A stretch of 63,999 bases of DNA, the filler included, from Chlamydiia bacterium (GTDB taxonomy: Bacteria; Chlamydiota; Chlamydiia; Chlamydiales; FEN-1388), in the NCBI GenBank assembly GCA_903848235.1. It is 9 parts of 9 records of this genome, joined end to end, with 100 filler letters (N's around TTAATTAATTAA, not from the genome) between each part and the next. Parts side by side here need not be neighbours in the genome. Positions count along the whole stretch, not along the records: positions 28,749 to 50,043 come from CAINFV010000045.1; 8 more parts are not named here. The stretch is one strand, 5' to 3'. Made by a program: the position numbers and the translations under genes. The notes under the pieces were generated by a model, which saw only the letters and a program-made list of their open reading frames with translations, did not search any database and was not told the DNA's origin. Each line of letters starts with the position of its first letter. Position 1 is the first letter of the stretch. Shown piece after piece: positions 48,853 through 54,359 of this stretch.

Positions 48853-49359
48853 CTATTTTCCCATAGGCTGAATGGCTTGGGTGTAATCTTTGGCAAAGGC
48901 TTGCGTCATCACTGTGACGGTGTCTAGAACTTCTTTTTTAAGTTCTTCTGGCCTGCATGAGAGAAGAGATGCTTGGGACCATGTTGTAGCCTGGAAGAGA
49001 GATCGATTACGAATGAGCATGGCTTCTTCCAGTAAATTGAGCTGAAAGAAGGTGGCGAGGTCTAAGCCTACTTGCAGAGTTCGTATTCGCAAGACTAATA
49101 CAGGCTGGGAAATCCCTTCATTGAACGTGACCCCGGCAGCGTCTAGTTCATGGACGATGACATCCTTGATCTCGTCAGAGTTAAATCCTGCCTGTGTTTG
49201 CTCGTCTGAGAGAAGATCAATTTTTATATTCACCTCTCGTGCCAACACCTGCCGTGTTGTGGACGTTGTCATAGAAGCCGGTTGTGGCTGTTCTTGTGCT
49301 GTGAATGCCAAAAAGGGGACTAGAAGGCACGTTCCAAAAAGCATAATACGTTTCATCAT
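48853..49359 (-). CDS. Secreted hypothetical protein
   Basis: Signal peptide (M)MKRIMLFGTCLLVPFLAFTA; followed by a terminator. Confidence 0.75.
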   Translation of the reverse strand: MMKRIMLFGTCLLVPFLAFTAQEQPQPASMTTSTTRQVLAREVNIKIDLLSDEQTQAGFNSDEIKDVIVHELDAAGVTFNEGISQPVLVLRIRTLQVGLDLATFFQLNLLEEAMLIRNRSLFQATTWSQASLLSCRPEELKKEVLDTVTVMTQAFAKDYTQAIQPMGK

Positions 49360-49711
49360 ATTGACGACGCGGAAACCCAAGCCTTTAGGTTTGGGAGGAA
49401 GCGTCGCTCCTTAGTTAAGTGTTAAAAATGGGAGGGTTTCCCATCCCAAAATGCCCGTAAGGGCCTGAATAACGTTCGCCTCGACCTTGTCTTCTGTGGG
49501 TTTTTGTAGATATCCTTCAGAAAGCCACCTCTCTTGCATGAACATCTACCGCAGAGTCCGGGACTGGCAACGCATCCCAGAGTGCCTATTTCGGCTAGGT
49601 TTCCCTTGCCATTCCACAAAAACGTCTCCTCGAATATCCAAGGGGTCTGGTCAACCGCCTTTGGAGATTTCTCCCATCAAGCCGCTCCCTTTAGGGAGGG
49701 ATGTGGTTGAC
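49357..49711 (-). mobile_element. Non-autonomous IS200/IS605 (IscB-type) element of about 355 bp with no protein gene
   Basis: Starts GTCAAC with CTCCC-TAAA-GGGAG hairpin; ends GCGACGCTTCCTCCCAAACC-TAAA-GGCTTGGGTTTCCGCGTCG; abuts ATGA. Confidence 0.85.
49470..49711 (-). ncRNA. HEARO / IscB omega-RNA scaffold
   Basis: GTCAAC/GTTGAC stem; GACCAG ... GGTCGAGG; ATAGGCAC-TCTGGGA-TGCGTTGCCAG-TCCCGGA-CTCTGCG; GTAGATGTTC/GGATATCTAC helix. Confidence 0.85.
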
Positions 49712-50143
49712 TTTCTAAATAACCTCCATTCGTGGAAAAAAGCTACGATACTCATACGAAATTCTTCACAAGGATTGCAAGGAAAATGGTAGAGGCTTTT
49801 GCAAAACTTGCAAAAGCCTCTTCGGGAAAACGAAGGAAGCGGTACTAGAGATTATAGACCCCAGGTCCCTCCAAGATAGAAATATGGTGCGCGATGGAGG
49901 TGAATATGATGGCGGTGATTGTTGTTTTTATCACCAATTGTTAGGTTCCCCCCAAGCGTTGAGCCGAGAGCAACCCAAAAATTCAAGCGCGCTGTTAGCA
50001 GATAATCCCAGCGAAACTCTGCACCAGTATTTTTATAGCAGGCNNNNNNNNNNNNNNNNNNNNNNNNNNNNNNNNNNNNNNNNNNNNTTAATTAATTAAN
50101 NNNNNNNNNNNNNNNNNNNNNNNNNNNNNNNNNNNNNNNNNNN

Positions 50144-50360
50144 TGTTGCATTGCGGGCAGGATATCTTCATGCGAGATTTGAGGTGTTCAATCGTGACTG
50201 TGCCGTGTTCGAGGTCTATGTCATCTACAGTAAGCGCCAAGACCTCTGAGATGCGGCAGCCGAGATGGAAGAGCGACACGATCAACAACCGGTCACGCAT
50301 GTTGGTTGCTGCCTTCGCCAATAAATCTGTGTCACTTACTTCTAGATAAGCTTTGGACAT
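50144..50360 (-). CDS. Tyrosine recombinase with a CxxC insertion (3' end cut)
   Basis: RDRLLIVSLFHLGCRISEVLAL ... CPQC. Confidence 0.8.
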
Positions 50361-50364
50361 AATT

Positions 50365-50823
50365 TCATATACCTTTATTATCAAGGAGTTCTAGGAGATC
50401 AAGCAGATTGACAGACATTTTGTTTCCAGCCTTACCTTGTGCACATTCACTATGGCCCCAACCATGCTCTTGCAAGTACTTAGCTGCCGCCTTCCTCACG
50501 TCTTCACTTTCTACAGCTATTGTCTCCTTACATCCAGCACATTTAAACTGAACCGAATAAATCGCTTTAGCTTTCATGTATCCCTCCTGGTAGCTCTTTT
50601 CCCGAATTTCCTTTTCTGATCGTTGTCTCACTTCCAGTTTCCCTGCCCCGATTCTTATGAGATATTTAATTGCATCCGATCGGCTTAGGCCCTCGTCTTT
50701 CTGAGTCGCTTGGATAATTTCCTCAAGATCATGATCGCTCCGAAAGACTCTGGGCGGATGTTTCCCGTCATATTCAATTTTCAAAGGGGTCTTCTTTTGT
50801 TTTTTAACTTTTGACATATGCAT
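50365..50823 (-). CDS. Hypothetical protein with an RHH-like region and a CxxC...HxxC zinc finger
   Basis: GLSRSDAIKYLI; CAGC ... WGHSEC. Confidence 0.7.
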   Translation of the reverse strand: MHMSKVKKQKKTPLKIEYDGKHPPRVFRSDHDLEEIIQATQKDEGLSRSDAIKYLIRIGAGKLEVRQRSEKEIREKSYQEGYMKAKAIYSVQFKCAGCKETIAVESEDVRKAAAKYLQEHGWGHSECAQGKAGNKMSVNLLDLLELLDNKGI

Positions 50824-50835
50824 CGCCCTCCTTTA

Positions 50836-51003
50836 TTATGCGGTCTTCCCGCTGTTTCTCTGTTCGTTCTGTAATTGTTTCTGAGCTCCCATCGCAGTTT
50901 TGTTCTGGGTATCGCGGGCATAGACGCGAGCTATAATTCGAGCAAGTATCCGAAGTCCTTCCTCGTTAGGCCCTACGTTCGTTTTTACCATTTCTTTTGT
51001 CAT
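50836..51003 (-). CDS. Small hypothetical protein (55 aa, below the ORF-track cutoff)
   Basis: TAAGGAGG RBS; MTKEMVKTNVGPNEEGLRILARIIARVY... Confidence 0.6.
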   Translation of the reverse strand: MTKEMVKTNVGPNEEGLRILARIIARVYARDTQNKTAMGAQKQLQNEQRNSGKTA

Positions 51004-51041
51004 TTGCATCCTCCTTAGCTAGTTTTGGTAGTCTCCCCATT

Positions 51042-52103
51042 CTAAGAGACAGATCGTTTTCGATTGATGCACTGCTCCTTCTTACTTGAGTGAGGCATTT
51101 TTAGATTAAGGTTATCGGCGGGGGAGAACTTCTGGTGAGCAGTCTTAATATCAGATTCCGCCAACGCCACGTACCCCCGCAGAACCTCAAGACTTGAGTG
51201 TCCTGTCATCTGTTGTAGGTTGAAAAGATTGGCGCCGTTTCGCAGAAATTGAATACAGAAGGTATGTCGGAAGGTGTGTGGTGAGCACCGCACTCCTTGT
51301 AATCCAGCCTTTTTACCTAGATCCTTAATAATCGTTTCCACCCTGTTTTTTGTGAGCGGCCAGCCCTCTTGAGTCAGGAAAAAATTGTCAATTAACCCCG
51401 TTGCCGGTTGCGGCCGACGCAGTTGATATTTCCAGAGTGTTGCCAATAACCTTTTCCCTATCGGGACTCGTCTCTCTTTAGACCCTTTCCCGAAGACCTT
51501 GAGCGTTTTATTTCTGAGATCGACATCATCCTTTTTTAAGCCGGTCAACTCGCCTAATCTAATTCCTGTGTCCAGGAGTGTCAAAACTATTGCATAAGCC
51601 CTGAGTCCGGCAATATCGGAGGTGTCTAGGGCTTGAAGCAAGCTTTGAATTTGTTCCCCGGTAAATGGGGTTATGACCTTCCTAGGCGCTTTGGGTATCT
51701 TTGTTTTAGCGAACGGGTTGCTGTCTATGAATCCTTCTCTTGCTAGCCAACTCCAGAAGGCACTGATACTGCGCAGATAGCAGTTGATGGTATGCCCGGT
51801 GAGTTTTCTATCGTGATTTTTAATGAGCGGGTGAAATTCGAAGCGCTGGACTTCCTTTAAATGTAGAATGAAACTTCGAATCTCACTTACGCCGATTGAT
51901 TCCACATTGGTGGGCAGTCCAGAGCGCGTCAGATAATTATTGAAATAGCTTACAGCTCTGCTGGTAAGCAGGATTGTGTTTTCGCTGATTCCCTCGCTGC
52001 GAGCGCATAGTCTGTAGCCCTCGATCAGCTTGCTCAACTCTGTGGAGGCTGGCCTATCAAGGGTTTGCTCAAGGAATTCATCTATCTTACGATCTAACGT
52101 CAT
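51042..52103 (-). CDS. Tyrosine recombinase/integrase
   Basis: TGIR, GKGSKER, HTFRH, GHSS, Y: complete catalytic set. Confidence 0.93.
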   Translation of the reverse strand: MTLDRKIDEFLEQTLDRPASTELSKLIEGYRLCARSEGISENTILLTSRAVSYFNNYLTRSGLPTNVESIGVSEIRSFILHLKEVQRFEFHPLIKNHDRKLTGHTINCYLRSISAFWSWLAREGFIDSNPFAKTKIPKAPRKVITPFTGEQIQSLLQALDTSDIAGLRAYAIVLTLLDTGIRLGELTGLKKDDVDLRNKTLKVFGKGSKERRVPIGKRLLATLWKYQLRRPQPATGLIDNFFLTQEGWPLTKNRVETIIKDLGKKAGLQGVRCSPHTFRHTFCIQFLRNGANLFNLQQMTGHSSLEVLRGYVALAESDIKTAHQKFSPADNLNLKMPHSSKKEQCINRKRSVS

Positions 52104-52200
52104 TAGCCTTACCCTTTACAGTTGAACATCTTATACCTCCATGCTAGGATTACATAAGTTAAGGCATTTTAGGGCTTCTAAGGCGTGTAAACGAAGTAGT

Positions 52201-53100
52201 ATGAGTAAAGAGTTTTACAGTGTAAAAGAGTTTGCCAAAATCCTTGGCATGTCGACTGACCGAATATACGAATATTTGAGGGCTGATTACCTGCATGGAA
52301 GTCGGGCGACAAAACGGAGTGCGTGGCGAATCCCCGACGCTGAGCTTCAACGGTTTAAGGGGACAAGCTTGGTAAAATCCGGCGCTCAGACAGAGAACAA
52401 GTCTGCCTCATGGTCCGAGTATCTTGAATTGGCAATTCAGCTCCAAAATAGCCTGTCTGGCATTGGGTTCAAGGACTGGTCCATCTGGGGGCTTCCCGAT
52501 ACCGGCAAACCTCCGCAGACTTCCGAGGCAGGGCTAAGGCTCTGGATAGATCGGGGCGAACTGGCAGTGAATCTGTCTGTAGAATCGGATAAGCGATTTC
52601 CGCTATTTATCACCAGGCTGAAAGCCTCCTTTACGGAGTTTGAGTCCTATGACCGGTGGCGGAAATCGCTTATCAGCCTTGTTCGTATGTGTTGGGATAT
52701 GGCACATGAAATCAAGAGCAAGGCTGAGGCTGAAACGGGTTTGTTCTTGAGCCCTTACCCTCCAATAGGGAAGGGACATCTGATCAACGTGCCCAAGTAT
52801 ATTTACGAATTTGCCCTCGACAAGTACGCTTGCAAAGGGCAACCGGTACTGGAAATTCTCGAAAACGACCCCAAGCACTGCTGGGTTGTGCCTGGAGGCC
52901 TTCCTAACTATGCTCTCGCGATGGGGTCCAAGGATGAGATGGAGAAGTGCAGGGAAGCTACGATCTCTCTAGCTGTCCAATACGCCAAAGATGAGCGCAT
53001 GGGCAAAATAGTTGCCAAGGCGCGGCAGGTGAAGGATCAGACAGCTCCGTTTCAATCGGCGCTATCTGCAGTCATTGAAAAAGCCACTGGCGGCAGCTAA
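52201..53100 (+). CDS. Protein with an N-terminal excisionase-like HTH and unknown C-terminal region
   Basis: YSVKEFAKILGMSTDRIYEYLR...WRIP. Confidence 0.75.
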   Translation: MSKEFYSVKEFAKILGMSTDRIYEYLRADYLHGSRATKRSAWRIPDAELQRFKGTSLVKSGAQTENKSASWSEYLELAIQLQNSLSGIGFKDWSIWGLPDTGKPPQTSEAGLRLWIDRGELAVNLSVESDKRFPLFITRLKASFTEFESYDRWRKSLISLVRMCWDMAHEIKSKAEAETGLFLSPYPPIGKGHLINVPKYIYEFALDKYACKGQPVLEILENDPKHCWVVPGGLPNYALAMGSKDEMEKCREATISLAVQYAKDERMGKIVAKARQVKDQTAPFQSALSAVIEKATGGS

Positions 53101-53112
53101 GCATTTCATTTA

Positions 53113-54135
53113 TTAATGTTCTTTGACCTTCTTGCCTTTGGCGTTACGGGCTACAGCTAGCTTCATTCCCATCGCGAGATTATCTACGGGGCTGGCTATA
53201 GCATGGGCCTTCTTAATATCCACATTGGCCAACTCGCAATAGCGTCTGGTCATCTCAAGTGATGAGTGCCCCAGTATCTTCTGCAGGCTGAAAACATCGC
53301 CGTCGTTTCTAAGAAAGTTGATGGCAAAGGTATGTCTCAGGGTGTGAGGGGAGCATCTGACGCCGGTAAGCCCGGCCATCAGGCCGTAGCGTTTCATTAT
53401 ACTATCTACACGGTTCTTGGTTAGCGGCCTCCCGTCCTGGGTTAAGAACATGTTGTCGAGCTTGGGCAGTGCCGGTTCGGGGCGATATTGATTGATGTAG
53501 CGCCACAGCAGTTTACGGATCTGTTTACCGATGGGCACCAGTCTTTCCTTATTGCCCTTGCCCAGCACCTTGACCAGCCCATCCTCAAGCCAGACGTTTC
53601 CCATTTTTAAATTTATCAGTTCGTTCACGCGGAGGCCGGTATCCAGTAAGGTGAGGACGATGACCGCGCCTCTATAGCCTTCGGCAGAGCCGTTCATGAC
53701 ACTTAGCAGCGACTCGATCTGATATGGGGAAAAGGCGGCGATGATCTTCTTAGGCGGCTTCGGGATTTTGAGCTTGGAGAAGGGATTTACCTCGATGATC
53801 TCCTCCTCAACGAGCCAGGACCAGAAGGCCCGGATGGACCTCATGTAGGTGTTGACGGTGTGTCCGGAAAGCCCCCTCTGCTGCGGCTTGCTGTAGGGGT
53901 GATCGCTGAAGCATCTCTTCTGTTGCAGGTAGAGGATGAATTCCCTCAACTCCCCTGTGCCTATCCCAGTAACGTCGGTGCTCAAGTCATTGCTCTTGAG
54001 AAAATCGTAGAGGTATCTGATGCTGCTGGTGACGATTGCCGTGGAGTTGGGGCTTTTCCCTTCGGTTGCGGCGCACAGCTGATAGCCATGCAGCAGGCTG
54101 CCTATTTCGGTGCCGGAATTTGACGAAGCAAGCAC
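53113..54135 (-). CDS. Tyrosine recombinase/integrase (paralogue of 51042-52103)
   Basis: TGLR, GKGNKER, HTLRH, LGHSS, TRRY. Confidence 0.93.
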   Translation of the reverse strand: MLASSNSGTEIGSLLHGYQLCAATEGKSPNSTAIVTSSIRYLYDFLKSNDLSTDVTGIGTGELREFILYLQQKRCFSDHPYSKPQQRGLSGHTVNTYMRSIRAFWSWLVEEEIIEVNPFSKLKIPKPPKKIIAAFSPYQIESLLSVMNGSAEGYRGAVIVLTLLDTGLRVNELINLKMGNVWLEDGLVKVLGKGNKERLVPIGKQIRKLLWRYINQYRPEPALPKLDNMFLTQDGRPLTKNRVDSIMKRYGLMAGLTGVRCSPHTLRHTFAINFLRNDGDVFSLQKILGHSSLEMTRRYCELANVDIKKAHAIASPVDNLAMGMKLAVARNAKGKKVKEH

Positions 54136-54183
54136 CCTCCCTTTACAGATACGATTTTGCGGGCTAGAATAGATACGAATTTC

Positions 54184-54258
54184 GCGGGTGTAACTCAGCG
54201 GTAGAGTGCTTGCTTCCCAAGCAAGGAGTCGTGGGTTCGAATCCCATCACCCGCTCCA
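54184..54258 (+). tRNA. tRNA-Gly(CCC)
   Basis: GCGGGTG acceptor stem; CTTGC-TTCCCAA-GCAAG anticodon arm; GGTTCGAATCC T-arm; encoded CCA. Confidence 0.96.
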
Positions 54259-54359
54259 ANNNNNNNNNNNNNNNNNNNNNNNNNNNNNNNNNNNNNNNNN
54301 NNNTTAATTAATTAANNNNNNNNNNNNNNNNNNNNNNNNNNNNNNNNNNNNNNNNNNNN

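Follow-up and report, generated by a model that had tools for sequence, protein, structure and literature searches.

Introduction

A number of ISC transposons with N|ATGA targets have been described, namely ISC1-1_MA, ISC2-1_HM, ISC2-1_MS and IS605B-1_MA (Kapitonov et al., 2016; PMC4810608); the main text of that paper holds no occurrence of the terms 'start codon' or 'translation'. In Geobacillus, the guide of IscB was reported to lie 5' of the scaffold and outside the element, the nuclease was found to cut the empty donor joint, and guides were found to need an outside promoter (Meers et al., bioRxiv 2023.03.14.532601).

The element reported here resembles the N|ATGA elements (PMC4810608) in its 5'-GT terminus, its subterminal hairpins, its insertion just 5' of ATGA without duplication and in having ends which are common to IscB and TnpB elements. 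However, unlike the ISC transposons of that study, the copy under analysis has no ORF. With the PATE-like elements of Geobacillus (bioRxiv 2023.03.14.532601) it has in common the existence of ORF-less omega-RNA copies, a nuclease supplied in trans and a flank in the position of a guide. The Geobacillus account treats an orientation bias of upstream genes; insertion at start codons and rescue of downstream translation are not discussed in the parts of the preprint considered here. At the present locus the element separates the Shine-Dalgarno (SD) sequence of a host gene from its start codon, and its sequence suggests that it probably carries a split ribosome-binding site (RBS) which the host gene uses.

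Identity and Boundaries of the Element

The window (the whole stretch of DNA analyzed, 63,999 nucleotides including filler) was found to hold an ORF-less IscB/HEARO element of the IS200/IS605 family on contig C45 (CAINFV010000045.1) of a genome assembly of 284 contigs. The features of the locus are as follows:

48853–49356, minus strand: host gene, 167 aa, intact, without a match to any Pfam family; N-terminus hydrophobic and resembling a signal peptide (by eye)
49353–49356, minus strand: ATGA, the insertion target and predicted TAM, comprising the host start codon and one base (empty allele; N|ATGA targets, Kapitonov et al., 2016)
49357–49711, minus strand: non-autonomous IS200/IS605-type element, 355 bp (empty allele; ends as in sister copies)
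49357–49363, minus strand: 7-nt spacer between stem and start, holding the first in-frame ATG, which is the element's own (sequence, empty allele)
49364–49407, minus strand: terminal structure, a 7-bp outer stem around an inner TAAA-loop hairpin (49376–49395); left end in transposase orientation (folding)
49407–49413, minus strand: element-borne Shine-Dalgarno sequence TAAGGAG (−7.9 kcal/mol)
49424–49447, minus strand: GC-rich hairpin with five T, terminator-like, which may mark the 3' end of the omega-RNA (by eye; not called by the consensus scan)
49453–49464, minus strand: small hairpin past the end of the Rfam model (alignment with the copy on contig C268; the IscB-coding copy diverges here)
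49469–49711, minus strand: HEARO/omega-RNA scaffold, full model (Rfam RF02033, 98.9 bits; gathering score, 83)
49682–49711, minus strand: 5' terminus GTCAAC with TAAA-loop hairpin (common to the IscB and TnpB elements of the genome); presumably the right end in transposase orientation, as in the family
49712–49731, minus strand: predicted guide, consisting of the host 5' leader including its SD (IscB guide placement as in Meers et al.; guide length assumed)
49723–49727, minus strand: host Shine-Dalgarno sequence GGAGG, now 366 nt from the ATG (−10.5 kcal/mol with the anti-SD probe)
49751–49780, minus strand: possible host promoter, TTGCAA-18 nt-TATGAG (by eye; similar spacing upstream of several orthologs)

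Read along the minus strand, the host GGAGG (49727–49723) is followed by an 11-nt spacer, by GTCAAC at 49711 and by two TAAA-loop hairpins. At the 3' end, TAAGGAG (49413–49407) abuts the outer stem (arms 49407–49401 and 49370–49364), from which 7 nt lead to the ATG at 49356. An earlier note on this DNA had placed an element between the host RBS and ATG, with TAAGGA directly 5' of a terminal stem and an ATG shortly after it, and the sequence reads as described there. Hairpins are found near both ends of the element and there are no terminal inverted repeats. The Rfam match is full length (model positions 1–211, E 4e-19), and model position 1 coincides with 49711, the boundary set by the empty allele, with the guide in the 5' flank. 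The covariance search agrees with the earlier claim that a full omega-RNA scaffold is kept; the accompanying claim that iscB and tnpA are missing is borne out by an ORF check of the window, in which neither was found inside the 355 bp. Besides HEARO, the Rfam scan of the window returned one tRNA only, and no group I or group II intron core.

The existence of an uninserted form was indicated by a metagenome contig (run X5) which joins 49356 to 49712 with exactly 355 nt absent and no overlap ambiguity. The support for this empty allele comes from one of four runs compared, as a single contig with a depth of 3 and 54 letters on the short side; run X5 belongs to another study than runs X1–X3 and is listed as DNA. 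The empty allele restores an arrangement of host SD, 11 nt and ATG, as had been expected from removing the element on paper, and its clean junction indicates insertion beside a fixed 4-nt ATGA without target duplication. Sister copies which lack the first ATG share the end position of the window element. On account of this junction and of the sister-copy ends, the target is the second ATGA, i.e., the host start codon, while the first ATG is part of the element; the right boundary, previously described as ambiguous (ATGATGA), is thereby resolved. The element is a non-autonomous, PATE-like member of the IS200/IS605 type with omega-RNA only.

The joined sequence is also what would be expected if the element were spliced or processed out of the mRNA in the manner of an IStron, since precise removal would rejoin the host SD to the ATG at 11 nt, and the RNA is highly structured. 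However, no intron family was matched in the window, the joined form came from a run listed as DNA, and splicing is impossible for some copies because only their 3' end is kept, making this explanation extremely unlikely.

Orthologs of the host gene were found in 17 of 60 relatives, and at 18 orthologous loci in relatives the gene begins with the equivalent Met and carries no element. In the printed upstream DNA of orthologs, SD-like motifs occur 5–12 nt before this Met (examples have gaps of 5, 11, and 12 nt), and the restored gap of 11 nt is therefore normal for the gene. From these comparisons the ATG at 49356 is read as the true host start. No close relatives of the host gene were found among the genome contigs searched, and the related genomes gave no usable empty alleles at the nucleotide level as the orthologs are too distant.

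The outer stem was predicted with a probability of 1.0 when the RNA was folded to ATG+6, and compensatory variants of its arms occur among the copies. The 3' end of the genome's own 16S rRNA is missing from the assembly; in loci from family relatives (4/4) the 16S tail is complementary to the element SD. No other site in the genome matches at least 8 nt of the guide 3' end beside ATGA. A consensus promoter scan did not call the candidate at 49751–49780 and found no promoter.

Two further features were observed in the window. Positions 50144–54259 are a contig of their own, on which three ORFs resemble tyrosine recombinases (one Pfam-confirmed) and lie beside a tRNA gene; this is either an integrated element or foreign DNA binned with the genome. 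A short fragment at a contig start (54398–54688) is presumably the remnant of a DDE transposase.

The Element Family within the Genome

Six full omega-RNA scaffolds were identified in the genome by BLAST and Rfam, five of them above the cut-off, and four complete ORF-less copies of 355–374 bp are present. Contig C268 encodes an IscB of 440 aa with RRXRR and HNH domains, accompanied by an omega-RNA which is 89% identical to that of the window copy over 267 nt. Alignment with four homologs showed D57, E156, H211, and D312 of this protein to be invariant, and these we take to be its catalytic residues. Three short Y1_Tnp fragments of tnpA were detected, at or near contig ends of the assembly. The element had been called stand-alone, which holds locally, as it contains no ORF, but not for the genome as a whole, which has this likely cognate IscB and ten ends of the same type.

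Fifteen 3' ends were found in the genome, ten with (A/G)GGAG before the stem and five without. The search pattern required ATGA, so its presence at 15/15 ends is given by the method; a pattern free of ATGA still gave it in 92 of 100 cases. Nine of the ten SD-bearing ends lie on start codons, with ORFs of 70–391 aa which begin exactly at the ATGA, while the tenth opens ten codons. All nine downstream ORFs are unbroken and six match Pfam families. The SD-less sister family, which in our reading of the sequence encodes TnpB on the opposite strand, has the same target, but none of its five ends is on a start and none opens more than 21 codons (Fisher p = 0.002 for 9/10 vs. 0/5). As background, 641 of 3276 ATGA sites outside coding regions (~20%) are starts by a crude gene call. 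In three of the ten SD-bearing copies the body of the element has been lost and the end with SD and hairpin is kept before the gene. A stable hairpin between SD and start codon was predicted in 9/10 genome copies; when at least 30 nt of coding sequence were included in the refolding, the SD of the window copy was predicted to pair with the coding region. The simpler idea that GGAG merely pairs with an adjacent CCTCC was discarded, as it fits one degenerate copy of the ten.

Several derived forms were also observed. Relics of 45–49 nt, consisting of the 5' hairpin of the element only, stand directly before the ATGA starts of long ORFs at C37:8646(+), C102:26323(−), and C96:20076(+), and possibly represent a one-hairpin mini-element. 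One of the ORFs behind them is presumably pheS. Two of these relics, when scored, had a GGAG/GAGG-like site before the ATG (−6.4 and −7.0 kcal/mol). At C7:4642(+) and C100:4894(+), decayed 5' parts of the omega-RNA run directly into the ATGA starts of ORFs of 329 and 82 aa, respectively. The IscB-bearing copies on C4 and C146 are composite or recombined, their 3' part having a piece of the window-family omega-RNA tail before the end hairpin.

Survey across the Chlamydiae

An end pattern without SD had matches in 61 of 401 genomes of the phylum and was absent from 22 genomes of the same family. A set of 129 loci, forming part of the matches (29 were left out and some contig-edge matches skipped), gave 111 ends for analysis, as 17 loci yielded no kept end and one non-element match was removed. 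In 105 of the 111 ends the 15 nt preceding the stem (the conserved hairpin motif) contain GGAG or GAGG, compared with 0/109, 7/107, and 3/100 in the next windows upstream. At least 60 codons are open after 82 of the 105 ends with GGAG/GAGG, as against 1/6 without (p = 0.004, with an SD-less group of six ends only), so that the start-codon placement of SD-bearing ends seen in the genome extends to the phylum. At least 95 codons are open at 72/111 ends vs. 60/344 flank ATGA sites. Copies are related by descent, and the p-values therefore overstate the significance.

The spacer between stem and ATG is 8 nt in 74/111 ends. The stem forms with a probability above 0.8 in 98/110 ends, with many different arm pairs, a count which is partly circular because the arms were picked by the script. 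As in the window copy, a terminator-like hairpin is present just before the SD in 13 of 84 scored ends, which counts against use of the split site. Twenty six of 40 long ORFs (picked by eye out of 83) matched NCBIfam, nearly all from their first residues, and include rplB, nusA, rpsF, hisS, polA, dxs, and kdsB. In two high-copy genomes, each represented by its first 30 matches (of 104 and 75, respectively), 12/28 and 8/30 ends are on starts, with no significant association with SD.

Cross-Phylum Sample

A broader sample comprised 147 ends from genomes and phages, in 91 families. Reading frames of 95 codons or more are open from the ATGA at 31/59 and 48/88 of these ends, compared with 18/81 and 93/549 for flank ATGA. 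In an earlier parse of these ends, 28 of 80 downstream ORFs matched Pfam, 26 of the 28 from the model start. An SD of −7 kcal/mol or stronger precedes the stem in 40/91 families, vs. 4, 5, and 4 in control windows and an expectation of 13.9 from shuffling. SD before the stem and SD next to the ATG are mutually exclusive (p = 2.7e-4). The motif before the stem is also found in 30 of 64 TnpB elements with the same end type, where it cannot be IscB coding sequence; the trait is not special to omega-RNA elements.

In the second architecture (e.g., L068, L075, L138, L143, L231, L302) the SD is placed within the 3' arm of the outer stem or immediately behind it, 5–8 nt before the ATG, where it would be partly hidden once the stem forms. 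As a third route, found in full-length IscB elements, the IscB stop overlaps the target in 6/14 protein-found loci and 8/23 pattern-found IscB ends. In L176, L177, L179, L196, L197, and L347 the IscB ORF runs through the terminal hairpin, with a stop-start overlap with the host gene; the stop is the TGA of ATGA/GTGA in five of these (L176, L177, L179, L197, L347), while in L196 it comes one codon earlier and overlaps the ATG. Strong-SD ends followed by ATGG rather than ATGA (L407, L408, L433) suggest ATGR targets, and in L480, L481, and L096 (Poribacteria) the end hairpin is found in tandem arrays, ~117 nt apart.

Among the TnpB elements (within L035–L474) the register of tnpB relative to the target is biased (24/41 families, p = 0.002), such that the TGA within ATGA closes the naturally open frame on the antisense strand. 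Selection on this antisense frame was rejected, as it is equally open in all registers (18/24 vs. 13/17). It was also considered that the purine tract could be an anti-SD guarding the opposite-strand tnpB, an idea set aside as tnpB starts look leaderless by eye (20 cases). The base after GGAGG did not serve as a discriminator (T 7, A 6, G 5, C 3).

No association between SD presence and start-codon placement was found in the cross-phylum sample (on starts: SD before stem 39/73, next to ATG 20/30, both 7/8, neither 23/36). Furthermore, wobble pairs in the inner hairpin favor the transposase (opposite) strand by 27 to 8, and there is no RNA-strand wobble bias in the outer stem, for which reason the stem may be kept for DNA recognition. 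These observations would suit a host gene which is translated without the split SD: ribosomes might initiate at the AU-rich spacer with no need of an SD, or a short transcript might start inside the element end. The purine tract would then serve transposase binding or be an inherited by-product. The A/T-rich tract (79%) and terminator-like hairpin before the SD could likewise suit an internal restart. However, phylum copies with a broken SD core are mostly off starts (5/6), and each of the two positions between which the motif switches has a spacing from the ATG that suits an SD. No promoter for such a transcript was called by the consensus scan, and the transcript could in any case still use the split SD. 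Translation independent of the split SD is consequently considered unlikely.

Copies in Front of rplB, nusA, and rpsF

ORF-less HEARO elements of 347, 385, and 348 bp separate the ATG from the native SD in rplB, nusA, and rpsF, respectively, each in the expected gene cluster. Each gene is the sole copy found in its own genome, one of which is a single-contig assembly, and these genomes encode IscB elsewhere. The nusA case has no other in-frame ATG, GTG, or TTG, whereas other start codons are available in frame within the elements before rplB and rpsF. All three genes are generally regarded as essential. Since ORF-less copies part these single-copy genes from their native SD, translation must survive insertion. 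From this placement, together with the loss of the SD in copies away from starts, we infer that ribosomes use TAAGGAG across the folded hairpin.

The enrichment on starts could in principle come from IscB retention alone, if copies backed by a promoter make guides and are reinstated while the downstream gene is knocked down. IscB guides do need outside transcription, with upstream genes co-oriented (Meers et al., bioRxiv 2023.03.14.532601), and the one non-start copy of the present genome also lies in a probably transcribed leader (gene names by recognition). However, TnpB elements, for which no outside promoter is needed, are on starts about equally often (35/64 vs. 15/23 for IscB). Tolerance of a knock-down of rplB, nusA, and rpsF is unlikely, and the nine downstream ORFs in the genome are all unbroken. 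Retention as the sole cause is very unlikely indeed.

The overlapping IscB stops suggest another possibility, in which AAGGAG is a relic of the C-terminal codons of IscB, insertions are tolerated through translational coupling, with ribosomes that finish IscB at the TGA within ATGA restarting on the host gene, and copies without an ORF persist as slightly harmful remnants. In the window copy the sequence reads open for the final 21 codons up to the overlapping TGA, but no start codon occurs in this frame, and the stop of the intact IscB of the genome lies 88–90 nt before the ATG. The motif occurs in TnpB elements as well, and the copies before rplB, nusA, and rpsF have no ORF to couple. Coupling is already inadequate for ORF-less copies and is regarded as very unlikely to explain the motif.

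Proposed Mechanism

Overall, the interpretation given in the earlier note was supported. In the mechanism proposed here, mobilization would begin with the Y1 transposase TnpA, which in trans would move the gene-less element and insert it 5' of ATGA. This sequence is often a start codon, and insertion there would displace the host SD by hundreds of bases. The host promoter would be expected to read through the element, transcribing leader, scaffold, element end, and gene as one. The hairpin of the transposon end, needed as DNA by the transposase, would also fold in the RNA, looping out ~43 nt, so that 7–8 nt and the width of one helix would remain between the element SD and the host ATG. The gene would stay translated, and start-codon insertions would therefore be tolerated. 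As the start-codon position supplies a host promoter, the host leader would become the omega-RNA guide, and an active IscB from another copy could cut the empty allele at guide plus ATGA, the putative TAM, and so reinstate the element.

A wider reading is held tentatively. ATGA-targeting IS200/IS605 elements may have reached, free of splicing, harmlessness at the most protected sites of the genome. In this view the start codon would double as insertion target and TAM, promoter and leader would be borrowed from the host to make the guide, and the gene would receive a portable RBS in return. The RBS could be returned in hairpin-split, ATG-adjacent, or stop-start-coupled form, and such elements might be seen as a translational counterpart of homing introns. 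On essential genes, loss would be possible by precise excision only, which IscB would punish, and one transcript could thus be both guide RNA precursor and mRNA leader.

If true, this would offer a reason why many IscB and TnpB elements target ATGA, as the start codon gives a promoter for the guide and can be neutral. The persistence of these elements in compact genomes, including copies before essential genes, would be explicable without silencing. It is also predicted that transposon ends act as mobile translation-initiation modules which reset the expression of host genes, ribosomal genes included.

Comparison with Known Systems

The class of the element is ordinary, while its trait, docking at start codons together with a probable replacement SD, is well supported and apparently undescribed; the full-text literature covered (main texts, with thin coverage of subscription journals) yielded no account of it. 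IStrons and homing introns are known to combine a selfish element with a homing nuclease and to be made harmless at important genes. Here, in contrast, harmlessness is proposed to come from replacement of the RBS and not from splicing. Introns in essential genes are treated in a review (PMC13565253).

In the omega-RNA of DtIsrB an SD is associated with the 3'-end hairpin (Hirano et al., 2022; PMC9581776). However, the SD of DtIsrB serves its own nuclease gene, whereas the SD of the window element belongs to the transposon end, with a host gene ahead of it. Split sites are known from phage T4, where a hairpin between SD and AUG shortens the spacing from 27 to 11 nt and from 22 to 5 nt in genes 25 and 38, respectively, and is needed for efficient initiation (PMC3014915). 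The present case differs in its linear distance of 50 nt, in having a transposon end as the hairpin, and in that the site is delivered to unrelated host genes. The elements described here would therefore provide many natural examples of a 50-nt split RBS, longer than both of the T4 cases in that review.
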